Shown here: positions 46,661-63,161 of the stretch, one piece after another | How the letters are laid out: the number at the start of each line of letters is the position of its first letter | Numbering within the stretch: the first letter of the stretch is position 1 | NCBI GenBank assembly: GCA_963768425.1 | Contig: CAVYHV010000008.1 | Span: 152,932 to 216,931, forward strand | Source of the DNA: Candidatus Bathyarchaeota archaeon | Lineage (GTDB): Archaea; Thermoproteota; Bathyarchaeia; Bathyarchaeales; Bathycorpusculaceae | DNA: 64,000 nt | Reading direction: 5' to 3' | Notes under the pieces: generated by a model | Database searches by the model: none | What the model saw: only the letters and a program-made list of their open reading frames with translations | Told to the model about the DNA's origin: nothing | Made by a program: the position numbers and the translations under genes

Positions 46661-46735
46661 GGGGCTGTCGGCTAGCTTGGTCTAGGCTTGTAGACTTGGG
46701 CTCTATAGACTCCGGTTCAAATCCGGGCAGCCCCA
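46661..46735 (+). tRNA. tRNA-Pro(TGG)
   Basis: Acceptor GGGGCTG/CAGCCCC; anticodon arm GTAGA-CTTGGGC-TCTAT; T loop GGTTCAAATCC. Confidence 0.93.
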
Positions 46736-46837
46736 TTCAAGGTTCTGAACCGTTTCCAGAGTGTGTCAAAACTTACAGCCAAAACCTCATTATTTGCCTA
46801 CCCAAGCTCTTGGATACGTTTGTTCTTAACAACTTTT

Positions 46838-48302
46838 TTACGGCTTAATCAAATCCATTAGCGTCCCAACTCCAAAAATATTAATCACCCTTCTAAGATT
46901 ATAAGCCAGCATAGTAAATCCCACTTCTCCCCTAACCTTCCGTAACCCTTTCAAAAGCAAATAACCTTGATTGAACGCTCGCTTAATAGTTCCAAACGGA
47001 TGCTCCACTATTTCCCGCCTCAAACGAAGCTTCGCTCTTCCAACAGAACTACTCACTCTCGCCCTTAATCTGTCCACAGTATCTTGATATTCCGGCCTGA
47101 ACATGCGTCTGCCACGTTTGTTTCTGGTGCATCTACTCCTCATAGAACAAGAGAGACAGAATTTCGTCCCATAAAGACCACCCCAACATTGCTCTTTTCC
47201 TCGATAACTACGCCTCAAAAGCTCCAATTCAGCCCCGCCAGGACAAACATAAGCATCTCGCTCAACATGAAAGACAAACTTACCAGAGCAAAACTCGGGC
47301 TCCGGCACCCCTACATTCTTAGTGGGATTGAAAGCTGGAATCGGCATAAACACCGTTATCCCAGCTTCCTCACATTCAACCAGATCATTTGCAACATAGA
47401 ATCCTTTGTCACTCAAAACTTCCAGCTGATCAACGCCAAGCACCTGTTTCGCAGCCTTAGCATCAGTCGCTAGCTGGTGATCGATCAGTCGAATTGTTGA
47501 TAACATCGTAATCCACGATTAAATGCTGCTTCGCATCCACAGACGTCTGAATGTTGTAGCAGACATCCAGCCTTTGACTATCTACCCGCATGAGCCTGCT
47601 ATCTGGGTCTGCGAGTGAAACCTCCGTCTGGCCTGTCGCCTTCATCTGGTTTTGGGCCTGTTCATACTGCTGCTTCTTCTCCTCAAGCTTGCTGATCCTT
47701 TCCTTTAGCCCGTTGACTTTAAGGCTATTATCTTTGCCTGAGTCGGCTCTGTCGTTCTCATCCATCAGCTTAAGGTACTCCGCTATCTTCTCCTCGGTTT
47801 TCTTGAGCCTCAACGCGACTGTTTTCTCGTTAAAATTGTTGCTCTTTGAATTAACAGCTTTGAACTTGCTGCCGTCTATAGCTACAAGTTGAGCGCCATA
47901 CAAGTCTAATGAACGGCAGAGGTAGACGAATTCTGTGAAGACTGGTTTGATGCAGTCGACGTTGTTTTTTCTGAAGTCAGCGATGGTTTTGAAGTCCGGA
48001 GCAAGTTTCTTCATGAGCCACATGACTTCGAGGTTGCGGTGGCATTCTTTCTCCAGTTTTCGGCTTGATCTCACCTGGTTTAGGTATCCATATGCGTAGA
48101 GTTTGAGAAGGTCTGAAGGATTGTAAGATGGTCTTCCCGTGTTAGCAAGAATTGAATGTTTGAAACCGAGTTTCTCCAGGTTTAGGCTGTCGATGAAGGC
48201 GTCAATGAACCTGACTGGGTTTTCTGCATCAACGTATTCGTCGAGTGTATCGGGGAAGAGTATGGTTTGGTCTCTGTGGGTTCCGCCGACGTGTTCGCTC
48301 AT
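46838..48302 (-). CDS. IS1182 DDE transposase (frameshift near 47485)
   Basis: GRPSY.P..LLKLY.YGY, SSRKLE, PDFKTIADFR, AIDGSK, DPDSR, SDKGF, VEHPFGTIK. Confidence 0.9.
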
Positions 48303-48484
48303 GGCTGTGGGCTCCCTTCGGTTGGTTCTTCAACTATAACTAGGTAGACTGTTTTGCCAAGGTACTCTTTTGGGCATGTGACTTTGGCGCCTGTTCCGTA
48401 GGCAGTGACTTTTCTCTTTAGGAAGCCGATTATTCCAGTGACTTTGATTTCTGTTGCTGGCTCAAAAACTATTTTTTTAGGCAT
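48299..48484 (-). CDS. DUF2080-like transposase-associated small protein
   Basis: RKVTAYGTGAKVTCPKEYLGKTVYLVI; its stop overlaps the transposase ATG (ATGA). Confidence 0.75.
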   Translation of the reverse strand: MPKKIVFEPATEIKVTGIIGFLKRKVTAYGTGAKVTCPKEYLGKTVYLVIVEEPTEGSPQP

Positions 48485-48565
48485 ATATATCTGATATTAA
48501 CCAATTATACATATAAAACTATCATTCACTTGAAAACCTAACATAGTTTTCACACACTCTGGAAA

Positions 48566-50192
48566 GAGACCGTGTGAAAACTCAGAGCTAAATCCTAAGA
48601 GTATCTATCACTCAAGCTGTTAGCTACTATTGTTCACTTGTTTTCTCTTTTCTACGCCTTAATGAAGCCCATCAGCATACCAACTCCAAGAATATTGATA
48701 GCCCGTCGCATGTTGTAAGCCAGCATCGTAAATCCGACCTCTCCTCTAACCTTTCGCAAGCCTTTCAATAGCACATAGCCCTGATTGAAAGCACGCTTAA
48801 TAGTCCCAAACGGATGCTCCACTAGCATCCGTCTCAAACGAATCTTCTCTCGTCCATCAAGACCCTTCAACCTAACCCTTAGACGCTCAACTGCATCATC
48901 ATACTCAGACCTAACCATAGTCCGTCCACGTTTGTTCCTCGTACACTTGCCCCTAAAAACACAGACAGCGCAACTAGCAGTCCTGTAAACCCTGCCTCTC
49001 TCAGGTTCATCTCTGTAGACGCACTTACAAAACTTCAACTCTTCGCCTGCAGGACAAACATACACGTTCTTAGCAGCATCATAAACAAATTTGTCGCTGT
49101 AGAACTCAGGCGCTGGAACACCAATACTCTTGTAAGGGCTCAAAACGGCGGGTATAGGCATGAAGACAGTAATACCATTGTTCTCGCAGTCTGAGACGTC
49201 TTTTTCAACATAGAATCCCTTGTCACTCAAAACATCAAGCTCATCCACACCCAAGGTCTCCTTTGCTGCAAAGGCGTCCTTGGCTAGCTGATGATGGTCA
49301 GTTGAGTTATTTATCACATCATAATCAACGATTAGATGCTGTTTCGCATCGACTGATGTTTGAATGTTATAGCCGACTTCAAACCGTTGACTATCCACTC
49401 TCATCAAGCGGCTATCAGGATCCACAAGAGAAATCTCCCTTTGCCTGTGCCTTCATCTGCTCTTGAATATGCTCGTACTGCTTCTTCTTCTCTTCCAACT
49501 GGCTTATTTTTTCTTTAAGCTCATCGGTCTTGACTGCTCCATCTCCGTCTGAATCAGACGCATCATTGTGGTCTAATTCGTTGAGATATTTTGCTATCCT
49601 TTCCTCTGTCTGCTTGAGTCTTAGAGCGACTGCTTTCTCGTTGAGGTTGTTGCCCCGTGAGTTAACAGCCCTGAATTTTGTACCATCGATGGCTACCAGC
49701 TGAGCACCATAAAGATCCAAGCTCCTGCAGAGGTAAACAAACTCTTTGAATACGCCTTTGATGCAGTCGACGTTATCTTTCCTGAAATCAGCAATGGTTT
49801 TGAAGTCTGGAACAAGCCTCTTCATAAGCCACATAACTTCAACGTTTCGGTGGCACTCTTTCTCCAATTTCCTGCTAGACCTGACCTGGTTTAGGTAGCC
49901 GTAAACGTAGAGTTTTAGCAAGTCTGAAGGATTGTAAGAGGGTCTTCCAGTTTCAGCCGGAATTGAGTGTTTGAAGCCAAGCTTTTCCAGGTCAAGGCTA
50001 TCTATGAAAGCGTCGATGAACCTAACCGGGTTTTCTTTTTCAACGTACTTGTTGATGGTATCTGGGAACAGCACTGTTTGGTCTCTGTGGGTTCCATTTA
50101 CATGTTCGCTCATGGCTTTTCAGTTGTTCTAAGGCTAGCTTTAAGCTTAACGGTAAGTGGCTGGCAAAAAATGAGACTTTTCACACACTCTC
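48566..50192 (-). mobile_element. IS1182-family element B with 4-bp GAAA target duplication
   Basis: IRs gagaccgtgtgaaaactc / gacttttcacacactctc (15/18); GAAA at 48562-65 and 50193-96. Confidence 0.88.
48652..50113 (-). CDS. IS1182 DDE transposase (frameshift near 49425-49445)
   Basis: Same motifs as element A, but a clearly diverged copy. Confidence 0.9.
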
Positions 50193-50432
50193 GAAAGGGT
50201 TCAGAACCTTATCCAAACAAAAGGTGATACTCTTCTCGTCTCAAACAGGTGGCGCCCGAAAAGACTGAAGACTCTGTTAACAACTGTTAAGAAATCTCGC
50301 CCATAGCTGACTCGTATAGGTTTGAACCCGCGTTTGAGCCCTCGGATATTGAATAGTTCGATCACTTGGAGGGTTTTTAAACTTCAACGCCTCTACTGTC
50401 TAAACAGATGGGTAATAAAAAGGAGGAATAAT

Positions 50433-51244: not shown

Positions 51245-51506
51245 TGAGAGTAAAATCCTTTTAGCGCTGAGTTTTTTTGAGACTATTCTTTTTGGATGTT
51301 TCCGAAAACCTACAGTTTCTTCTTCAGAGTTGTTATAGGTTTAAGCAGCCTAAACGCGTTGGTCTCTACGAACCTTCACATGTGAGAGGATACTTGCCGT
51401 CTGTACAGTAGACCCGCGAAGACCCCCAAGCCGAATAGCGCCATCACGTCTAATTGCGTAAATCTTTATAATACAACATCGTATGCATTAAAAGAGGAAG
51501 ATTGGA

Positions 51507-52262
51507 ATGTTTAAGCTCAAAGTGGCTGACTCAAAATTCTTAAGAGACATGGTTACAGCTATCTCAATACTCGTAGATGAAGCTACTTTCAAAATTGAAC
51601 CCGACGGCTTGAAACTTCGGGCTATGGATCCCTCCCGCGTTGCCATGATCGATTTTGAATTGCCCAAAACAATCTTCGAAGAATACGTTTGCAGTGAACC
51701 CATGAAAATAGGCATGAAAATAAGCGAACTGCTGAAACTGCTGAAGAGAGCGGGGAAAGACGAAGCAGTGGAGTTGTTGCTTGATGATAAGACTGGGCGT
51801 TTGCAGGTTAAGATAACAGGGAAGTACAACCGAGACTTCACCATGCCCACGATGGTAGCCTCGGAGGAAGAAGTGCCAACGCCAAAGATAGCCTTCAACG
51901 TAAAAGCTAAGATTACAACGCACGGTTTGAGCCAGACAATTGAAGATGCTGGGCTAGTCAGTGACCATGTTAGATTTGAAGCGGACCCGGAAAAGCTGGT
52001 TTTGAACGCTATGGGCGACCTCATGGGTGCTACGATAACTCTGCTGAAGGGAAATGATGCTCTCTTGGATTTGGAGGTAAAAGAAGCTTCAAAGGCAACT
52101 TTTAGCCTAAGTTACCTGTCTGAAATCATTAAAGCGGCTTCAGCCACATCCGACATCGCTACACTGGAGTTCTCAACCGACATGCCTGTGCTCATCGATT
52201 TTCAACAGTCGAAAGGAGGAAAACTGACTTTCTTCCTGGCGCCAAGAATCGAAACGGAATAA
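51507..52262 (+). CDS. pcn: PCNA sliding clamp
   Basis: LVDEATF, AMDPSRVAM, FSLSYL, FFLAPR. Confidence 0.96.
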   Translation: MFKLKVADSKFLRDMVTAISILVDEATFKIEPDGLKLRAMDPSRVAMIDFELPKTIFEEYVCSEPMKIGMKISELLKLLKRAGKDEAVELLLDDKTGRLQVKITGKYNRDFTMPTMVASEEEVPTPKIAFNVKAKITTHGLSQTIEDAGLVSDHVRFEADPEKLVLNAMGDLMGATITLLKGNDALLDLEVKEASKATFSLSYLSEIIKAASATSDIATLEFSTDMPVLIDFQQSKGGKLTFFLAPRIETE

Positions 52263-52567
52263 TGAGGCTGATTTAGTTAGCAACGATGGGTGATGAGCCC
52301 TTCACAAAAAAATTAATGTGGAATTAGGCTTCAATCTTAGTAAAACGTTTGAAAACCACTTAAGACAGCTAATAACGCAGTTTTTACCATGCCAAAATTT
52401 AAAGGACAAAATATCGACAAATCCACAATGCGTGTACGTGTCTAAAGCCAGAATATAGGATAAGGGAGCCACACTGAAACATCCTTAGGCGACTCTGTTG
52501 TTTAATCGCTTTATAGGGCAGTTGAGTAGTATAGGGCAGTAACGTTATGATTAAATGGTGATGGTAA

Positions 52568-52855
52568 ATGTCGGAAAAATCAAAAATTGTTTTCGTTGGA
52601 AAGAAAATGCCAATGGACTATGTTCTAGCGATTATTACAGGGCTGTCAGCGAGCGATGCTAAAGATATAACCTTGAAGGCGAGAGGACAAGCAATAGCCA
52701 CAGCTGTTGACGCGGCTGAAATAACTAGAAACCGCTTCCTAAAAGATCTGAAAGTAAGCAAAATTGTGATAGGAACCGAGGAGATGCCGCCAAGAGAGGG
52801 CGAAACCAGAGCACGTATGGTTTCAACAATTGAAATAATGCTTACCAAAGAGTAG
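52568..52855 (+). CDS. albA: DNA/RNA-binding protein Alba
   Basis: VFVGKK..MDYVLA, KARGQAI..AVD.AE, VSTIEI.L. Confidence 0.93.
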   Translation: MSEKSKIVFVGKKMPMDYVLAIITGLSASDAKDITLKARGQAIATAVDAAEITRNRFLKDLKVSKIVIGTEEMPPREGETRARMVSTIEIMLTKE

Positions 52856-53105: not shown

Positions 53106-53312
53106 ATGGGAGTAAACCTTGGTGTAACTATGAAATGTCCTGCTTGCGATAAAATGCTTAAACGAATAGAGGGTGTATGCGGCGAGTACATCTGTATTAA
53201 TCACGAATGCCTTGAAAACAAGAAAGCACGCGTGCAGGCATACGCAGAGTTTTACGGGCTTACCCAAGCAGAAATATACGCAAACTATCGCATAGCACTT
53301 ACCAAAAAATAG
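53106..53312 (+). CDS. Small Zn-ribbon protein
   Basis: CPAC...YICINHEC. Confidence 0.55.
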   Translation: MGVNLGVTMKCPACDKMLKRIEGVCGEYICINHECLENKKARVQAYAEFYGLTQAEIYANYRIALTKK

Positions 53313-53533
53313 GAAGGAGAAATAGCCGTGAGCGCGTTGGCTGTCCCTAATCGAATGTGAACAAGGATGATATTGTTTTCCATTTGGAGAAAACAGCGGA
53401 TCTCCCGTTTTTGTGCGCGCAACAGAAGCGATGCCCTAAAAAACAAGTTTTGACATTTTTGTTTTTCCTGATACTTTAGGTTTTAAGAACCACAACAGGC
53501 CCAAACGCCTTTTGCGAAGCGCAATATAGCCCT

Positions 53534-53641
53534 ATCGGGTGTTTGGATTTCAACGACTGATTGTTTACGCAGGTCCTTAGGTGAAATCAGACCGAATGAG
53601 ATTTCGTCAACAACTTTGTGGATTATCTCTTCTGTAACAAT
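53534..53641 (-). pseudogene. rpoA1: 5' stump of RNA polymerase subunit A' (rpoA1)
   Basis: IVTEEIIHKVVDEISFGLISPKDLRKQSVVEIQTPD matches the RpoA' N-terminus. There is no start codon, and homology stops abruptly after TPD. Confidence 0.85.
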
Positions 53642-53682
53642 GCGCTATCTTGTCGTCTGTGCAAGCATCATGGGGTCAAATT

Positions 53683-56600
53683 TTATGCCTTCTCCTTGAG
53701 TCTTAATTTGGGAGTTATACACAGACTCTTGAGCTCCTGCAACAGAAGCTTAAAAGCGTAAGAGACGATTACTGCGGAAACTTTGGCTTTTTCGTCACAT
53801 ATCCTGCAGACATAGCGTCTTTGTTTCATGTCGAAGTAAGCGATTTGCCCGCAGTTCTCGCAGATGTAGAGCGTGTACTTGTCTGACTCTTCCAGCAATC
53901 TGTCTGTGAGCAGCATGGCTGCGCCGTGTCCGATGAGGCAGTCTCGTTCCATTTCTCCGAATCTGAGACCTCCGCCTCTGGCTCTGCCTTCAGTGGGTTG
54001 CCTTGTTAACATTTGAACTTGTCCGCGGGCTCTGGCGTGTATTTTGTCAGCGACCATGTGGTGAAGTTTTTGATAATAGACTACGCCGACGAAGACGTCT
54101 GCAACGAATTTCTCGCCTGTGGTGCCGTTGTAGAAGACTTCGCTTCCAGTATGACTGAAACCAAGTTTTACGAGGCTCTTACGTACTTCAGTCGGGACCT
54201 TCGTTTGAGAATGGTGTGCCATTTGCTGGTCTTCCTCTTGCCGATGCAGCTTTTCCAGCGAGAGATTCGATGAATTGGCCAATGGTCATTCTTGAAGGTA
54301 TAGCATGCGGGTTGATTATTAGGTCTGGCACCATGCCGTCATCAGTGAAGGGCAGATCCTCTTGCGGCACAATTAAGCCTATGACTCCTTTTTGTCCGTG
54401 ACGTGAAGCAAATTTGTCGCCAAGTTCGGGGACTCGTTGATCACGCACTCTTACTTTTACAAGTTGGCTGCCTTCGCCTGACATCGTTATGAATATGCCG
54501 TCTACGATGCCAGTTTCAGAGGGACGCATGTCGACAGATGTATCACGCATTGATGGACCTTTAACTTCGAATTCTTTGTATTCTTCCAGGAATCTCGGTG
54601 GGCTGATTCTGCCGATTAATACGTCTCCACCGACAACTTGCGATTCTAAACTGATTATTCCGTCAGGTTCTAAAAGCCTATAATATTGTTCGCCTCGGTA
54701 ACCACGGGTTCCGGGTTCTGGAACAGTGAACTTGTCTTTTAATCCGCCTAAGTATTGGCGGCATTCTGCTTCGTAAATTCGGTAGAATGTGGATCTGGCT
54801 AAGCCTCGTTCTATGGATGCTTTGTTGAATATTAATGCGTCTTCCATGTTGTAGCCTTCGAAGCTGAGCACGGCAACAACGCAGTTTTGTCCTGTGGGGC
54901 GTTGCTTGTAACCCATAACTTCCATTAGTTCTGTTTCAACCATCGGCACTTGCGGGTAGTGAAGTATGTGTGAACGTGAGTCAACACGGTGATGGAAGTT
55001 GGTGCAATAAACGCCCAGCGCTTGTTTAGCCATAGCTGCCTGGTATGAGTTACGAGGCGACTGGTTGTGTTCGGGATACGGAATTGTTGAGGCGCAAATC
55101 CCAAGAATCGTGTAAGTAGCTATTTCCACATGAGTATTTTGAGGGTTAATTGCGTCAAATGTTAAGGCGATGTAAGCGTTTTCTTCTTCTTCAGCATCCA
55201 AATACTCAATTAAACCATTCTTAACTACGTCTTCCCAAGTCCACTCGCCTAAACCGATCTTTTCAAAATGTTTAGGCTGAAGTTTTGACGCTCCATTCTC
55301 AACAATTATGAGTGGGCGCCTGACTCTGCCTTCGTCACAGTTAGCATGTACTTCCTCGGTTTCAGTTTGCTGTTTTGAGAAGTATGTTACGTTTACTTCG
55401 GTTGAGATTTCCCCAGCTCTTCTTTTCTCGCGGAAAGACTTCACCATTTCCTGCGGGTTATTGCAGTAGCCTATGATGTTTCCGTCAACGAAAACTTTAG
55501 CTCCTGAAATACGTAAATCGCGGCTGGCTTCTGCTGCTGGAACAGCACCCATTTCAAAAAGTAATTGCTTAACTCTATCGGGATTTACTCCAACGGCTAT
55601 GGAAGCTGATAGCGCTAAGTTTTTGACTAAGCCACAGTTAGAGCCTTCAGGGGTTTCGTTTGGACACAAGCGTCCCCAGTGGGTTGGGTGTAAGTCTCTG
55701 GCTTCGAAGTTAGGTTGGCTTCTGCTCAGTGGCGACTGAAGCCTGCGCAAGTGGCTTAGGGTTGAGATGTAGTTTGTTCGGTCTAAAAGCTGGGTGATGC
55801 CGACTCTGCCTCTTCCCCAGTTGCCCGTTGCCAACGCATGCTGAAAACGTTCAGTTATTATGCCAGAGCGAACTGCGACTGAAACAGTTATGATTGGTCC
55901 TTTAACGCCTATGCGTTCAAGCTGGTACTTTATGTCTCTGGTTAAGTTTCTGAATGATACGCGGAAGAGGTCTGCAAGAAGCGGACCACCGAGGCGCAAA
56001 CGTTTGTTCTTGAAATGGTCTTTATCGTCAGGTTGCCTTCTACCCGTTTTCAACTGTAGAACTCGGTATGCCATTTCGCCTAGGAAAATTGCTTTTTCTT
56101 TTCGGTTTGTTTCGCTTCTGCCTAAGTGTGGCAAGAAGTTCTTGTCCAGGGCCGTCTCGGCTTTTTGTAAGCGGTATTCTTCAACTTGTCCGTGGGCTAC
56201 ACGGTTACCGATGAATAGGATTGCGTCTGCAGGTGTGTCTACACCTATGGCTTTTTCAAATGAAGCGGCTAATTGGCTTTGCATTTCGCTGTCAAGTGAA
56301 ACTGCTTCTGCAATGTCTTTGTCTTTTTCTAGGCTTAAGGCGCGCATTATGACAACGAACGGGATTTCTGTTGGTAATCCGGGCATGGTGACGTAGATGG
56401 CGTCGTCTGATTTGAGTTTAAGTTCAATTCTTGCTCTGAAGCCGACGGTGGTTGAGAAAATTTTTGCTTGATAAACTGGTGAGGTTCCTTTCTCGTCAAT
56501 GTCTACAAGTACGCGGTTAGGCGCCAAGTCTTCCATGGCAACAATGACTCGTTCAGAACCGTTAACAACAAAGTATCCGCCTTGGTCATCAGGGTCTTCT

Positions 56601-57055
56601 CCAGCAGCAATAAGTTCCTCCTTTGAAAGCTGGGATAAGAAGCAAAGTTTCGATTTAAGCATTACAGGAATATTTCCAATGTAAACAAGTTCGGTGTCCT
56701 GTTCTCTCCCATCTATCACGGGCGTCATTTCAAGCGCCACTGGCACGGCGTATGCAAGGTTCCTGAGCCTGGCTTCCATGGGATAAATTTCGTGTTTAGA
56801 GCCATCCACTTCTGCCACGTACGGCCCTGTTATCCTCGATTGAGGATCTATCACCCAGACCTGTCCAAGCTTCACCTTGTACGGACTTTCAGGAACTTCA
56901 ATATTGATTTCGCCAACCTCATCCACCACCTCCTGCAAACCATGATCGATAAACTCGTTATAAGAATCCAGATGCTGTCTAACTAGTCCTTTCTCGTTGA
57001 AGAAAGATTTTAACAACAAATGTATATCTTCTTTTGAAATTTCAGTCAAAGTCAT
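53683..57055 (-). CDS. rpoB: RNA polymerase subunit B, unsplit (frameshift near 54195)
   Basis: [63 protein letters not shown]. Confidence 0.96.
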
Positions 57056-57282
57056 TTATCCCCCGCAAGTTTAATTACGAAACGATATTCATGTGAATGT
57101 GCTTTTCGAATGCGGACCTTCTCAAACTTTTGATTTCCTCTGATGTTGAATCATCCAACTCGAAAAATAGTCTCCAGTTTTTAAGAGCCACACACACATC
57201 CTGTACAGCTCTAATAAACTTTTTGTACATTAGTTCATTTCTTTGCCCATAAAACACGGTTCGTTACACTTTCTTAGGGTTA

Positions 57283-57506: not shown

Positions 57507-59675
57507 TTACACTACAAAAGGCGCAGGCTTCTGCAGCCTTCGAACCTGATTCATAAAGCTCCTATACCAATTCTCAATTTCTGGCGATATGCTCGGCGGA
57601 ACCTCCTCCATAGCTTTCTCAAAATCGCTGAAGGTAACCTCTTTTGCGTTGATGTCTCTTCTCAAAGCGTTCATGGCGGCCTCCCTGCATACGGATGATA
57701 TATCGGCGCCGGAGTAACCTTTCGTCATGCGATGCTCCTTGATGTCCACATCATTTGATAGTGGCATGTTCTTCGTATGAATCTTAAAGATTTCAAGCCT
57801 GGCCGCTTCGTCGGGTTCTGGAACATAAATTAGCCGATCGAATCTGCCTGGCCTTAATACGGCTGAGTCGACAATATCGGGCCTATTTGTCGCAGCTATA
57901 ACTATGATGTCTTCTAAGGGCATTATTCCATCCATTTCTGTTAAAAGCTGGCTGATGACGCGTTCAGTTACTCCGCTGTCGCCGTAACCCAGCCCCCTCC
58001 TTGGAACAAGAGAGTCAACTTCATCGAAGAATATGACCGCTGGCGAAGCCATTCTAGCCTTCCTGAAGACCTCTCGAATAGCCTTTTCAGACTCGCCAAC
58101 CCACTTAGAGAAAACCTCCGGACCCTTAATCGAAATGAAGTTTGCCTCGCTCTCAGTTGCAACAGCCCTAGCCAGCATTGTCTTCCCACACCCAGGCGGG
58201 CCTATTAACAGTATACCTTTAGGCGGCTGAATCCCCAATCTCTTGAAGACTTCAGGATTTTTCAGCGGCCACTCAACAGCCTCCTTTAATTTCTCTTTAA
58301 CCTCCTCCAAGCCTCCCACTTCATCCCAATGAACAACCGGAACTTCCACAGCAATCTCCCTCATAGCTGTAGGCGTAATCTCCTTGAAGGCGTTCATGAA
58401 ATCATCTATCCGAACCTCCATCTTCTCCAGGACGTGGGGAGGTATTCGCTCTTCCTTCAGATTTATCTCGGGAAGATACCTAAGTAGAGCTTTCATAGCT
58501 GCCTCTCTGCACAGGGCGGCCAAGTCAGCACCCGTGTAACCGTGCGTCCGCTCAGCAAGCAGCTTTAAGTCAACATCATGGGCTAAGGGCATACCTCTGC
58601 TATGAATCAACAATATTTCATGACGCCCCCGCTTGTCTGGGGTCCCTATCTCTATCTCGCGGTCAAACCTCCCAGGCCTCCTGAGAGCTGGATCCAAGGC
58701 ATTCGGCCTGTTTGTTGCACCTATTACTATGACATTTCCTCTACCAGTCAATCCGTCCATGAGAGATAGAAGCTGAGCGACAACCCTTTTCTCCACTTCA
58801 CCTGTAACCTCCTCACGTTTGGGCGCGATGGAGTCCAACTCGTCTATGAGTATGATGCTCGGAGCGTTTTTATGAGCCTGTTGAAATATTTCTCGAAGCT
58901 TCGCCTCCGACTCCCCATAGAACATACTTATTATCTCAGGCCCGTTTATTGAGAAGAAGTTTACATCAGACTCATTTGCTACTGCTTTAGCTAGGAGTGT
59001 CTTTCCGCAGCCGGGTGGACCGAGCAGTAGAACCCCTTTCGGAGGATCTATTCCAAGCGTCTGGAAAATCTCGGGATGCCGCATTGGAAGTTCAATCATC
59101 TCCCTTATCAGTTGAATCTCCTTCTCCAAGCCTCCTAAGTCCTCATAGGTGGTACGTGGCACACTTTCAGCTTCCGCAACAGGGTCAGTCAATATCTGCA
59201 ATATAGTATCGAAAGTCATCTTGACTATTCCTTGGGGCTGCATCTTCGCAACAGTGAACTGAACAGAATGACCAAGCATCATAACGGACGTCTTGTCTCC
59301 CTCAACAAACGTCCTATCCATAAGTCTGTTCTTCACAAAATTTGCAAAGGCTTCGTCAACGTTCAATCGCATATTCACTGGAGCAAGCACTATGCTCATG
59401 GCATCTTTAACTTCAGCCTTGCGAACTACAACGTACTCGTTTATTGATACGCCAGCATTTTTACGTAAGAACCCATCGATTCGCATAACGTTTGGATCCT
59501 GGTCTTCAGAGTACGCTGGCCAAGCGATCGCCGACGTTTTTTTCTTCCCTGAGAACTCTATTACGTCTCCAGATGAAACCCCTAACTTTTGCATTGTTCT
59601 CTGGTCTATTCTAGCGATTCCTCTTGCCACATCTCTCTGTCTGGAATCCAGAACTTTCAGCTGAACTTCGCTCAA
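57507..59675 (-). CDS. cdc48: CDC48/VAT AAA+ ATPase
   Basis: N-domain, two [23 protein letters not shown] x2. Confidence 0.95.
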
Positions 59676-59780
59676 TCTTCAACGCTCCATTAAATATATT
59701 TCTGATAGAAGCACTAAATCCGTTCTCTCAACATCATTAGAAAATCACCAATGGTTAAACCTTTTCAGAGAAAACATGGA

Positions 59781-59924: not shown

Positions 59925-62756
59925 TCACGAGAAAACGTTGAAAGGGTAGTCGGGATTATTTAATTCAGCTGAAGTCAACATCATTTCTCTAAGTCTGGCT
60001 TGAGCTGCCACGAGTCTAACAATAGGAACACGGTATGGGGAACAGCTTACATAGGTTAGACCAAGAGCTTGAAAGAATTCCACACTGCGAGGATTACCGG
60101 CGTGTTCACCGCAGATGCCTACTTTGAGTTTAGAATTACCTTTTTTGCCCCAATCGATGGTGATTTTCATAAGTCTACCCACCCCTTTAATGTCCAGAAC
60201 CTCGAAGGGATTATCAATAAGAATCTTCAACTCATTATAGAGAGGCAGAAACTTGTTCTCCGCATCCTCCCTTGAGAAAGAAAAAGTGGCCTGAGTCAAG
60301 TCATTTGTACCAAATGAAAAGAAGTCGGTTACCTTTGCCAGTCGACCAGCTCGCATGCAAGCCCTAACCGTTTCAATCATCGTCCCAAATTGAATGTGCA
60401 ATTGAACACCGTGTTTTATCTCAACTTCCTTCTTTATGTCTTCCAGCCACCTGCGGACCCTCTTGAGTTCTTGCGACGTAACTACTTGGGGAATCATGAT
60501 CTCAGGTTGAGCATCCACGCCTTCATTGAGCAGTTCCGCGGAAGCCTCAAGACAAGCTCGAATCTGCATTTGGTAGATCTCAGGATATTTGATGCCCAGC
60601 CTTACACCTCGGTGTCCTAGCATAGGATTGACTTCGGCAGTCTCGCGAACCTTTTGCAGAATCTCTTCTTTCTTCTTGATTAGTTCGTCAAGAGGATGAT
60701 CTTTTTTGATTTCTGAAAGCTCACTAATGACATTTTCTACCTTGGGGATGTATTTCTGGAGTGAAGGCTCCAGGCTGACCTTAACAGAATCGGATATCAT
60801 TTCCATCTGTTGAAGACCTTGCTGCACGTCCTTGAGCCGTTCGATCTCCTGTAAAAGCGATTCTATGGAAGGCAGGAACTCATGAAGCGGTGGATCGATA
60901 AGGCGGATCGTCACGGGAAGTCCTTCCATTATCTTTAGAATCTGTTTGAAATCATTTTTCTGCATTGGCAGAAGCCGGTCCAGAGCCTCCTGTCTCTCTG
61001 CGGCACTGTCAGCGAGAATCATCTCACGAACAATCGGTAGACGATCTGTGGAATTGAACATTCTTTCCGTACGGCAAAGGCCAATCCCCTCGGCTCCCAA
61101 TTTTTTGGCCCTCGCAGCATCCTCCGGAGTGTCGGCATTAGCTCGCACCCCTAGAGTTCTAATCTCATCGGCCCATCTGAAAATCGTACTCAATTCTGGA
61201 CCGAACTGTGGATCAACAGTGGGGACCGCCCCAAGATAAATCGATCCAGTAGCTCCGTCGATCGTGATGACGTCGCCTGCCACAACTTTTTGGCCTTTAA
61301 AGAGGGCTGATTTGCTGTGGTTTTGAATCTGGATATCTCTGCAGCCTACAACACACGGTTTTCCCATTCCCCGTGCAACTACGGCCGCATGGGAGGTCTT
61401 GCCGCCGCGGCTGGTTAGTATTCCTCTCGCCTGAAAGAATCCATGAATGTCTTCCGGCTTCGTTTCTTCCCTTACGAGGATGACTGCTTCGCCCAATCGC
61501 CCCCGTCGTTCGGCCTCGTCAGCATCAAAGACGACTTTTCCATGAGCGGCCCCTGGAGAAGCAGGGATGCCTTCCGCAACTGGTTCAGCATGCGCCGTCG
61601 GGTCGATTCGATGGTGGAAGATCTGTTCAAGATGCTCGGGGCTTATACGGAGAAGAGCTTTCTCCTTAGTGAGGAGTTTCTCTGACACCATGTCAAGAGA
61701 TGTCTTGATGAATGCTGTCGCGTTCATCTTCGCGTTTCGGGTCTGGAGCAAATAGAGTTTTCCCCGCTCAATTGTGAATTCGAAATCTTGCACCTCACGA
61801 AAGTGCTGCTCTAGGACTTGGCGGATCACCTCAATCTCTTCGTACTGTTGTGGCATTTCTTTTTTCAACTGAGCAATCGGTTTAGGCGTTCTTATCCCTG
61901 CAACCACATCTTCACCCTGCGCATTGATCAGGTACTCTCCGAAAAGTGCATTCTCACCGGTTCCAGGATCCCTTGTGAAACCAACGCCTGTTGCAGAGTC
62001 ATTGCCCATGTTTCCGAATACCATGGTAACGATGTTAACCGCAGTGCCATCAGCCATTTTCGGAGTGATCTTAAATTCCCTGCGATAGTCGATGGCACGT
62101 TTTCCCCTCCATGAACGAAAAACCGCTTCGATAGCCATTTGGAGTTGTTTCCAAGGATCTTGAGGGAATTCCTGCCCCAACTCTTTTTTGAAAACTTCCT
62201 TGAACTCGTTGCAAATCTTAAGGAGATCGTCTGTGTCTAAGTCCGTGTCAAATTCGACGCCGAGCTGTTTCTTGGTAGTTTCAAGGATACTATCAAAATG
62301 ACTCTCATCCACTCCCATTGCAATTTTTCCGAAGAGTTGCAGGAACCGGCGGTATGCGTCATAGGCAAAACGACGGTTCTTTGTAGCCTTTCCAAGTCCC
62401 TCCACAACTGGGTCATTGAGTCCAAGATTGAGTATGGTATCCATCATGCCGGGCATTGATAAGGCTGCGCCAGATCTAACAGATACAAGGAGTGGATTCT
62501 CAGCATTGCCAAAGCCTTTTTTTGTCTTGTTCTCGAGACGTTTCATATGTTTCGTTACTTCAGCCATGAGACCATCTGGAAGCTTCTTGCTCTTAGCATA
62601 GTACTGGCGACAGGCTTCAGTGGTGATAACAAAGCCGAAGGGTATGGGAAGCCCAATCTGGGTCATCTCAACTAAGCCGGATCCTTTTCCTCCTAAAAGT
62701 TGCTTATTCTTGCCATCTCCCTCTTCAAAATCAAAGACAAACTTCACGTTTCCCAT
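59925..62756 (-). CDS. ppdK: Pyruvate, phosphate dikinase (probable start ATG 62756; ORF extends to 62873)
   Basis: LLGGKG, LLVSVRSGA, GEDVVAG, GGKTSHAAVVARG, GLCRTE, NPMLGHRG, FSFGTNDL, GICGEH. Confidence 0.96.
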   Translation of the reverse strand: MGNVKFVFDFEEGDGKNKQLLGGKGSGLVEMTQIGLPIPFGFVITTEACRQYYAKSKKLPDGLMAEVTKHMKRLENKTKKGFGNAENPLLVSVRSGAALSMPGMMDTILNLGLNDPVVEGLGKATKNRRFAYDAYRRFLQLFGKIAMGVDESHFDSILETTKKQLGVEFDTDLDTDDLLKICNEFKEVFKKELGQEFPQDPWKQLQMAIEAVFRSWRGKRAIDYRREFKITPKMADGTAVNIVTMVFGNMGNDSATGVGFTRDPGTGENALFGEYLINAQGEDVVAGIRTPKPIAQLKKEMPQQYEEIEVIRQVLEQHFREVQDFEFTIERGKLYLLQTRNAKMNATAFIKTSLDMVSEKLLTKEKALLRISPEHLEQIFHHRIDPTAHAEPVAEGIPASPGAAHGKVVFDADEAERRGRLGEAVILVREETKPEDIHGFFQARGILTSRGGKTSHAAVVARGMGKPCVVGCRDIQIQNHSKSALFKGQKVVAGDVITIDGATGSIYLGAVPTVDPQFGPELSTIFRWADEIRTLGVRANADTPEDAARAKKLGAEGIGLCRTERMFNSTDRLPIVREMILADSAAERQEALDRLLPMQKNDFKQILKIMEGLPVTIRLIDPPLHEFLPSIESLLQEIERLKDVQQGLQQMEMISDSVKVSLEPSLQKYIPKVENVISELSEIKKDHPLDELIKKKEEILQKVRETAEVNPMLGHRGVRLGIKYPEIYQMQIRACLEASAELLNEGVDAQPEIMIPQVVTSQELKRVRRWLEDIKKEVEIKHGVQLHIQFGTMIETVRACMRAGRLAKVTDFFSFGTNDLTQATFSFSREDAENKFLPLYNELKILIDNPFEVLDIKGVGRLMKITIDWGKKGNSKLKVGICGEHAGNPRSVEFFQALGLTYVSCSPYRVPIVRLVAAQARLREMMLTSAELNNPDYPFNVFS

Positions 62757-63161
62757 GGTCTTCGAGTCCTTTGATCTTTCTGTTCCTGTTGTTGCTCTTC
62801 CACGCTGCGAATTCACTTCCTTATCCCTGAGCGCATCACTGTCCACAGACGCGCGTTTGCCTTCCAGGTTCATTTGTTGTTTCCTCGCATCCGCTTAAGA
62901 TAACATCCAGTACACTCTTTCTTGTTGCCTTCCCAGACATTCGCAAACTCGCCACACGCGCACTTCATTTGGTTGGGGTCTCCAAGGTCTTCTCTTTGTT
63001 CTTGAAATAATCAGTGAAAAATTCTAGGGCTGCGCTAGTTAACTTAAGCATTTCAACATTATCCGAAGGCATTTGAATGTAACAATTACTATACTGAATT
63101 TTCAAAAGTGGTTTTCTCTCTTTCTTTTTTTCTGAGTATTATGGGATTTAATGGAACACTA

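Follow-up and report, generated by a model that had tools for sequence, protein, structure and literature searches.

The stretch of DNA considered here (the window) is the final 64 kb of contig C8 of G000, a Bathyarchaeia genome assembled in 33 contigs (2.96 Mb, 91% complete, 4.75% estimated contamination). On its minus strand, at the place that the original prediction had given from the sequence, lies a gene for the B subunit of RNA polymerase, rpoB, in which Rpb2 domains 1-7 were all found, in order, by Pfam search. The gene is the second rpoB copy of its genome and is termed rpoB2. In what follows G handles denote genomes (G000 being the source of the window) and L handles denote loci, some of which may be the same as G genomes and are not counted as independent. 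Extra rpoB copies like that of the window are labelled x, an older orphan type is labelled y and canonical genes carry the letter c (for example G004c). The parts of the unit are as follows.

53683..57055, minus strand: rpoB2, the second rpoB copy, which reads as frames 54188-57055 (955 aa) and 53683-54282 (199 aa)
56713..57055, minus strand: 5' segment of rpoB2, of y type by identity to y, about 107-113 codons (coordinates converted from the alignment)
57056..57233, minus strand: leader/promoter region carried with rpoB2, homologous to the upstream region of canonical rpoB
54193..54193, minus strand: an extra G that shifts the frame, the next stop being a TGA at 54190-54188
53535..53682, minus strand: dead rpoA1 remnant, consisting of about 42 inserted bases and then about 36 rpoA1 codons (about 53640-53535)
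53431..53534, minus strand: post-junction spacer, conserved among x copies and common to G000, G095, G117, G130 and L071

The Pfam domains Rpb2_1, 2, 3, 4, 5 and 6 fall within the 955-aa frame, while the end of Rpb2_6 and Rpb2_7 are encoded by the 199-aa frame, which is homologous to rpoB from about 54196 and closes with a TAA at 53685-53683. The single uninterrupted open reading frame (ORF) of about 1120 aa that is seen in unsplit relatives is not present in the window copy, and the gene is not essentially intact as had been supposed, the extra G at 54193 having been overlooked. Homology to the other rpoB of the genome spans 57034 to exactly 53535. Upstream of the gene a TATA-like sequence, AAAGTTTATTA, was read by eye near 57215-57225, and the leader match extends to 57222 in G003 and to 57233 in y. 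About 100 nt of this leader (57128-57224) are 74-76% conserved upstream of canonical rpoB in many species of the genus and are kept in rpoB2; this stretch could be a regulatory leader.

In the polymerase operon rpoB stands directly upstream of rpoA, but rpoB2 is followed only by a start-less stump. As was first noted from the sequence, it comprises about 36 codons that correspond to the beginning of rpoA1 but lack a start codon. Its homology breaks off sharply at 53535/53534, and it is separated from the rpoB2 stop by about 42 unrelated bases that contain ATGATG...TAG. The end point of the stump is identical in G095, G099, G117 and G130, and the junction, in which ...CCCGAT is followed by AGGGCTATATTGCG..., is common to all x copies and present also in two metagenome contigs. 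It is further bridged by short-read contigs from two peat studies (X1 record 1, 53450-53732, with 0 differences; X4 records 25 and 26, 53468-53636); all evidence from sequencing runs consists of Logan contigs, with at most 39% of the words present in any one run. Because the junction recurs in other genomes and in metagenome contigs and is bridged by short-read contigs, the join at 53535 is real DNA with a single origin, and the chimeric join at about 53530 that had been raised as a possible flaw was not found. The stump carries indels that differ among copies (a 2-nt deletion in G095 and others in G117), which shows that it is decaying. The suggestion that its in-frame TAG might be a recoded codon was rejected, as the stumps of relatives have frame-breaking indels. 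In the spacer beyond the junction a run of six T at 53443-53438 looks like a putative terminator.

Origin of the second rpoB

Profile and homology searches of the contigs of G000 gave two rpoB genes, one rpoA and one rpoH. A complete rpoB (1122 aa) and rpoA (1278 aa) are located on C24, a complete copy elsewhere having been expected of the essential rpoA1, and are followed there by ORFs of the size of L30e and NusA (the last two named by eye); C24 also holds the sole RNA_pol_Rpb1_1 match of the genome. The rpoA gene (C24:13603-17439) begins as rpoA and appears to be one ORF of 1278 aa in place of separate A' and A'' genes. The absence of rpoH upstream of rpoB2, to which attention had been drawn, is true, in that the sole RNA_pol_Rpb5_C match lies on C14, but rpoH is absent upstream of the canonical rpoB on C24 too. 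The absence at the window locus is therefore uninformative, the missing rpoH being a trait of the lineage and not of this locus. The rpoH gene itself (C14:144643-145236, corresponding to L003:1135-1728) encodes 197 aa, of which about 120 precede Rpb5_C and match restriction-endonuclease-like families (Mrr_cat, NA-iREase1), a layout that calls to mind the two-domain Rpb5 of eukaryotes.

The window copy shares 82.6% nucleotide and 95% amino acid identity with the rpoB on C24. Its nucleotide identity to the rpoB of other species is 92.1% for G004, 89.5% for G003 and 88.3% for G016, while for the backbone of C8 (44.0-46.7 kb) the identity to the syntenic DNA of these same relatives is about 84%, as expected for G000. 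The window copy is not a duplicate of the genome's own rpoB but has been acquired horizontally, in chimeric form. Nor is it an rpoB relocated from a broken operon, as had been suggested, or the main copy of the cell; the main rpoB and rpoA are intact on C24.

Evidence for chimerism came from y, a different orphan rpoB that lies beside the same Cdc48-like gene (see below) at two loci, L067 and L083. Identity between the two y copies is 86% (with a dN/dS of 0.085) and between y and x 77-79%, and the genomes with y (G136, G137) also carry a canonical-type rpoB. At L067 only about 10 rpoA1 codons are kept. A search of 120 genomes of the genus gave no y copy, and nothing in them is closer to y than the x copies (79%). 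In sliding windows the first 320-330 nt or so of the x ORF have an identity of 87-95% to y, against only 72-75% to whichever canonical rpoB. For the remainder the values are 92-97% to G004c (with one window at 90%) and 69-82% to y. According to the informative sites there is one crossover, which in each of the seven x copies falls at alignment nt 319-340. Of the site-by-copy comparisons ahead of it, 145 match y and 23 match canonical genes; beyond nt 400 the numbers are 90 for y and 1324 for canonical genes. The crossover and the stump end point are common to all x copies, so x arose once, as a chimera of the two types.

Distribution, transfer and selection

The DNA search covered 120 genomes of the genus, 111 of which had a match. 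The x unit, extending past the rpoA1 break, is present in G095, G099, G130, G117 and G074 (on two contigs), which with G000 makes six carrier genomes out of 120 and seven x copies; short remnants are present in G049 and G020. In both G095 and G099 the extra and the canonical rpoB are found on one contig. Five of the seven x copies are intact, with no frameshift or stop: those of G095, G117 and G130 are open ORFs of 1123 aa, and both G074 copies lack stops and frameshifts over codons 5-1122. The copies of G000 and G099 each have one +1 insertion. The canonical rpoB of G095 (C3:403296-406766, L055) has at least two frame changes while the x copy of the same genome is intact; either faulty assembly or an ongoing replacement could account for this.

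Two genomes of other families served to root a maximum-likelihood tree of the DNA sequences, in which all x copies fall into a single clade (UFBoot 100). This clade is sister to G003c, G046c and G078c (support 98) and nested inside the canonical clade holding G003, G004 and G095. The canonical genes G000c and G099c group together (94), far from the x clade. The synonymous divergence (dS) between x copies is 2-4 times below that between the canonical genes of the same hosts, as is seen in the following pairs.

G000 and G099: x-x dS 0.24, canonical dS 1.00
G000 and G117: x-x dS 0.59, canonical dS 1.35
G099 and G117: x-x dS 0.56, canonical dS 1.36

As the x copies are far more alike than the hosts' own rpoB genes, this indicates transfer of rpoB2 between species.

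The ratio of non-synonymous to synonymous divergence (dN/dS, Nei-Gojobori) among x copies is 0.032-0.057 over 21 pairs, at dS 0.24-0.76, against 0.009-0.069 over 36 pairs of canonical genes. Truncation and crossover are common to all x copies, and all of this divergence is therefore later than the orphaning of the gene. On the seven terminal branches the changes unique to single x copies comprise 352 synonymous and 61 non-synonymous; the window copy contributes 10 and 0 of these and G099x 11 and 1. There is no sign in the x copies of relaxed constraint, such as a dN/dS near 1 or an excess of non-synonymous changes, nor in the window copy of the neutral decay that had been named as a ground for refutation. 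The x lineage has thus been under strong purifying selection, and from this we infer that the RpoB2 protein has been in use. The idea of a retained second rpoB, possibly serving as an alternative subunit, fits these observations, the copies in five other species being mostly intact and strongly selected. Contigs from RNA libraries cover the gene body but are ambiguous: several of them stop at 53533 or 53535, where they show canonical rpoA1 sequence, and so derive from the canonical operons of relatives.

Differences from the canonical protein

The x proteins have 93-96% amino acid identity to canonical RpoB of the same genus and the same length (1123 aa in intact relatives), and the C-terminal cysteine-rich zinc motif, CENCG...CRIC, is kept in the window copy. 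At 873 positions that are invariant in the canonical genes the window copy differs 12 times, the range across the seven x copies being 12-21. Nine residues are fixed in x, with at most one exception, and absent from 31 canonical sequences of the genus: S16, N50, V65, A80, A102, V103, S396, V1091 and K1108. Six of the nine are within the first 103 residues, and the changed N-terminal part of rpoB2 falls in the Pfam Rpb2_1 (protrusion) domain. In the first 110 residues the positions specific to x/y are 16, 47, 50, 65, 80, 102 and 103. With x, y shares A80, A102, V392, a change at 396 and V1091. Because A102 and V392 are also the states of both outgroup genomes, some of the x/y residues may be retained ancestral states.

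Genomic neighbourhood

The genes around rpoB2 belong to a block that is shared with other Bathyarchaeia and lies in a non-syntenic island. Its principal features in the window, with those that precede it, are listed here.

57507..59675, minus strand: second copy of a Cdc48-family AAA ATPase (CDC48_N, CDC48_2 and two AAA domains), directly upstream of rpoB2
53106..53312, plus strand: 68-aa zinc-ribbon ORF, a block member in many relatives
52568..52855, plus strand: second copy of an Alba gene (Pfam Alba, NCBIfam AlbA), at the far end of the shared block
51401..52265, plus strand: PCNA gene cassette, one of four near-identical genome copies
46739..50210, minus strand: two tandem IS5-like elements (DUF772 and DDE domains), at the start of the non-syntenic island
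46661..46735, plus strand: tRNA-Pro, where synteny with relatives ends, the IS5-like elements being inserted directly after it

The Cdc48-like gene, which scores 1055 bits against TIGR01243 (cut-off 803), anchors the shared block. It has close relatives in 31 loci, with 88-98% amino acid identity in 27 of them and 64-77% in L084, L085 and L091; L096 is a 67-residue piece. All carry Candidatus Bathyarchaeota or Bathyarchaeia titles except L091 (uncultured Thermoproteales archaeon) and L096 (Chlamydiota bacterium). Between species the Cdc48-like genes have dS 0.03-0.3 and dN/dS 0.13-0.8, unlike the rpoB genes, and these values suggest that the block is exchanged and that its proteins change rapidly. 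The other Cdc48 gene on the contig (C8:41096-43041) is 67% identical to it in nucleotides.

The recurrent order in the block is Vps4-like, TBP, Cdc48-like, (rpoB2), zinc-ribbon, (SSB-like) and Alba, those in brackets being variably present. Homology begins about 70 nt upstream of the Cdc48-like start codon, giving an edge near 59745, and ends on the other side near 52430-52474 in most loci (52321 in L087); outside about 59745 and about 52465 the flanking DNA varies from locus to locus. The same block is hence found in differing genomic contexts and has diverged less than the genomes that carry it. The ends of the shared block showed no terminal repeats. The zinc-ribbon ORF had no Pfam, PADLOC or PHROGs match at E<=0.001, with only weak sub-threshold matches to zinc-ribbon and ligase zinc-finger models (Pfam E<=1, NCBIfam E<=0.01). 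In several loci without rpoB the zinc-ribbon and Alba genes follow the Cdc48-like gene, about 420 nt on in L068, L076, L087 and L088 and about 1.06 kb on in L073. Such loci, together with L071, in which rpoB2 has been lost, demonstrate that rpoB2 is an optional insert that can be lost. The approximately 425 nt between the Cdc48-like and zinc-ribbon genes in loci without rpoB2 have no similarity to the window flanks 57454-57233 and 53534-53327.

A paralog of TBP adjoins the Cdc48-like/rpoB2 block in many loci but is absent in the window. Five relatives (G003, G095, G099, G117 and G130) have 2-4 TBP genes each, and tblastn gave one TBP, five TFB, five PCNA and three Alba genes in G000; the numbers of TBP in the relatives and of TFB in G000 resemble the expansion of basal factors in haloarchaea. 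The PCNA cassette measures 865 nt, including about 100 nt upstream, and its four copies (in the window and at C19:59-923, C18:29754-30618 and C14:16476-17340) are 95-96% identical, with a further copy at 77% (C23:36386-37153). Two of the PCNA copies are at contig ends, and TFB genes lie 3-8 kb from two copies.

After tRNA-Pro, the only Rfam match obtained, the order in the window is two IS5-like elements, TRAM and DUF5752 genes, PCNA, Alba, zinc-ribbon, the stump with rpoB2, the Cdc48-family gene and pyruvate phosphate dikinase. The IS5-like elements have diverged from one another (75%) and have 33-nt terminal inverted repeats at 46739-46771 and 50178-50210. Both of their transposase frames are split, versus six intact copies elsewhere in the genome. 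Such elements are found on one side of the block in the window, where the contig ends before the far side is reached, and on both sides in G095. A search for repeats gave only the terminal repeats of these elements, and no integrase, att-like repeat, target duplication or tRNA-derived att site was found. PADLOC and PHROGs gave only generic AAA+ similarity (IetA, TRIP13, clamp loader), on which no defence or viral identity can be founded. The pyruvate phosphate dikinase gene (59925-62873) is a second copy, whose 982-aa product is extended at the N-terminus by about 40 residues. Its nucleotide identity to the copy at C8:89-91.6 kb is only 69-74%, and five relatives gave no close match to it.

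Proposed history and alternative explanations

On this evidence the window holds a foreign, chimeric second rpoB, derived from an orphan lineage, traded between species, maintained by selection and linked to a Cdc48-like gene; it is probably an accessory gene encoding an alternative B subunit. The x type arose a single time, by recombination onto an older orphan gene of the y type. The leader and the first 110 or so codons of the y gene were kept, and the rest of x, together with 36 rpoA1 codons, was overwritten from a canonical operon of the G003/G004 group, the rpoA1 piece being left from this event as a dead by-product. Since that time the gene has passed from species to species under strong purifying selection. 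Its site beside the Cdc48-family gene belongs to a block, variable in content, of spare genes for information processing that is found in Bathyarchaeia of soil and peat. This block includes a TBP paralog, the Cdc48-like, zinc-ribbon, SSB-like and Alba genes and, in the window, PCNA.

Several observations weigh against this interpretation. All of the data are metagenome-assembled genomes, and the evidence for use of the protein consists of substitution patterns. A 170-nt RNA-library contig (X15 record 16, 56778-56947, 3 differences) lies in the x-specific 5' part of the gene, with DNA carry-over as a possible source. There are only nine fixed x-only residues, so that a distinct function is not evident. 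Addition of y to the tree shifted the attachment of the outgroup to the x/y branch, which is due to the mosaic nature of x and leaves the root of the genus tree insecure. In L071 only the last 90 nt or so of rpoB2 and the stump are retained. The window copy is frameshifted, as are G099x and the y copy of G136 (which also has a TAA), and full-length orphan copies are broken in three cases out of eight compared with four out of 35 for canonical genes in the same kind of assemblies. Finally, both IS copies of the same island are split, and the island may be decaying here.

The last of these points bear on the alternative that the gene has only just died in G000, the extra G being real and no full-length protein being made, in a lineage that was functional until recently. 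We put this at a little under an even chance. In its favour, besides the frameshift at 54193, are the two split transposase genes nearby (with six whole copies elsewhere in the genome) and the broken or deleted orphan copies G099x, G136 y and L071. Set against these is the absence of any non-synonymous change among the ten unique to the window copy. Moreover the site reads CCC[G]ACTGAA in the window, CCC-ACTGAA in the closest relatives and CCCGAC-GAA in others, and so resembles a blend of two alleles that occur among relatives; a metagenome contig, L098, is open across 54193. Indel errors do occur in such assemblies, since the essential canonical rpoB is frameshifted in four of 35 genus copies (G023, G095, G096 and G115). 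Among 28 other testable genes of G000 one has several frame changes, a sample too small to decide the matter. At C13:21983-23831 a 616-aa gene that a relative has in intact form is matched only as four pieces spread across three frames; this is either a pseudogene or a poorly polished stretch. A consensus error and a very recent inactivation are about equally probable explanations of the extra G.

It has also to be considered that RpoB2 might be a resistance or decoy subunit, protecting transcription from an agent (a natural product, toxin or viral inhibitor) or from a modification that hits the normal B subunit, in the manner of the second rpoB genes of some actinobacteria. The accessory, horizontally spread distribution would suit such a role, as would the alanines at 80 and 102 of x and y, where all 31 canonical sequences have threonine and serine, and the changes shared at 392, 396 and 1091. 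However, Ala102 and Val392 are perhaps ancestral, being outgroup states also, no inhibitor or modifying enzyme is encoded nearby, and the PADLOC matches are of the generic kind described above. We know of no inhibitor or modifying enzyme for such a role and regard it as unlikely.

A further explanation, to which we attach little probability, is that rpoB2 is an inert passenger: a mobile block would have picked up part of an operon, and the low dN/dS would reflect no more than recent copying from functional genes. The block is flanked by IS5-like elements (on one side in the window and on both in G095) and is exchanged between species with the low dS of its Cdc48-like genes, and most of x was copied from a canonical gene. 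Against this, the divergence among x copies all post-dates the chimera and the truncation and yet dN/dS stays at 0.03-0.06 up to dS 0.76, and in the same period the stump gained frame-breaking indels while the 3.4-kb ORF remained open in five of seven copies. Repeated gene conversion of x by the canonical genes of its hosts was not seen, x being one clade.

An assembly or binning artefact, by which the second rpoB would come from another organism or the join at 53535 be mis-assembled, is largely refuted and highly improbable: the assembly is an incomplete draft of 33 contigs with some estimated contamination, rpoB2 lies 7-10 kb from the contig end and it resembles the gene of another species, but the junction recurs in five other genomes and two metagenome contigs and is bridged by short-read contigs of two studies, G095 and G099 carry both copies on one contig, and the C8 backbone has the identity to relatives expected for G000.

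Relation to known systems and significance

The usual view of archaea is of a single RNA polymerase, each core subunit of which is encoded by one gene, and alternative archaeal transcription programmes are usually ascribed to paralogs of TBP and TFB. In archaeal papers the name rpoB2 appears to denote one half of a split B gene. The closest counterpart of RpoB2 is the canonical Rpo2/RpoB of the genus, which it resembles in its seven Rpb2 domains, length, 93-96% identity and zinc motif. It differs in lacking a downstream rpoA partner, in lying beside a Cdc48-like gene and not in a cluster of polymerase and ribosomal protein genes, in the separate type of its N-terminal 110 or so residues, in its presence in six of 120 genomes and in its movement between species. 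Actinobacteria have a second rpoB (rpoB(R) of Nonomuraea, rpoB2 of Nocardia), a full-length extra copy with few residue differences that is presumed to swap into the one polymerase; it encodes a bacterial beta subunit and is tied to rifamycin resistance. There would be an analogy in the presence of an extra full-length copy, with few residue differences, beside the essential one, whereas the present gene is archaeal and chimeric, has no resistance region and is linked to Cdc48 and TBP paralogs.

Haloarchaea have expanded sets of TBP and TFB paralogs, which are likewise spare basal transcription parts that could build alternative initiation complexes; those are initiation factors, whereas here a core catalytic subunit is duplicated. 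The second-largest-subunit paralogs of eukaryotes (Pol I, II and III, and Pol IV and V of plants) are ancient and highly diverged and have their own largest subunits. Duplication of an Rpb2-type subunit as a route to specialised polymerases is common to both cases, but rpoB2 is of recent date, hardly differs from the canonical gene and lacks a partner rpoA. In the portions of papers returned by a full-text literature search no report was found of an rpoB that is orphan or present as a second copy, either in Bathyarchaeia or in any other archaea, and the passages obtained from PMC9012536 and PMC13257274 do not treat a second rpoB.

If the window holds an accessory rpoB as proposed above, RpoB2 would stand in for the usual B subunit in some of the polymerase molecules, and the resulting isoform would differ mainly in the N-terminal 110 or so residues of the protrusion domain, with few changes elsewhere. 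A surface formed by these N-terminal residues would be altered, and the spare TBP and TFB of the lineage may be partners of the isoform. One tentative and rather doubtful extension of this is that there are two forms of a single polymerase, into which the traded RpoB2 with its distinct protrusion segment swaps and, with the spare TBP/TFB, directs a separate programme or shields transcription, while the Cdc48-family unfoldase may exchange or remove subunits.

rpoB is used as a single-copy marker in phylogeny and in the assessment of genome quality, and a foreign second copy can distort trees and estimates of contamination. A second gene for a catalytic core subunit that is under selection and can be transferred, and that in relatives stands beside a spare TBP, points to polymerase isoforms in an abundant, uncultured lineage of soil and peat. 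It also provides a concrete model for the onset of subunit paralogy, which is the basis of the several polymerases of eukaryotes. Should the reading of two polymerase forms be true, rpoB2 would represent a prokaryotic and still-mobile stage of the kind of duplication that gave eukaryotes several polymerases.

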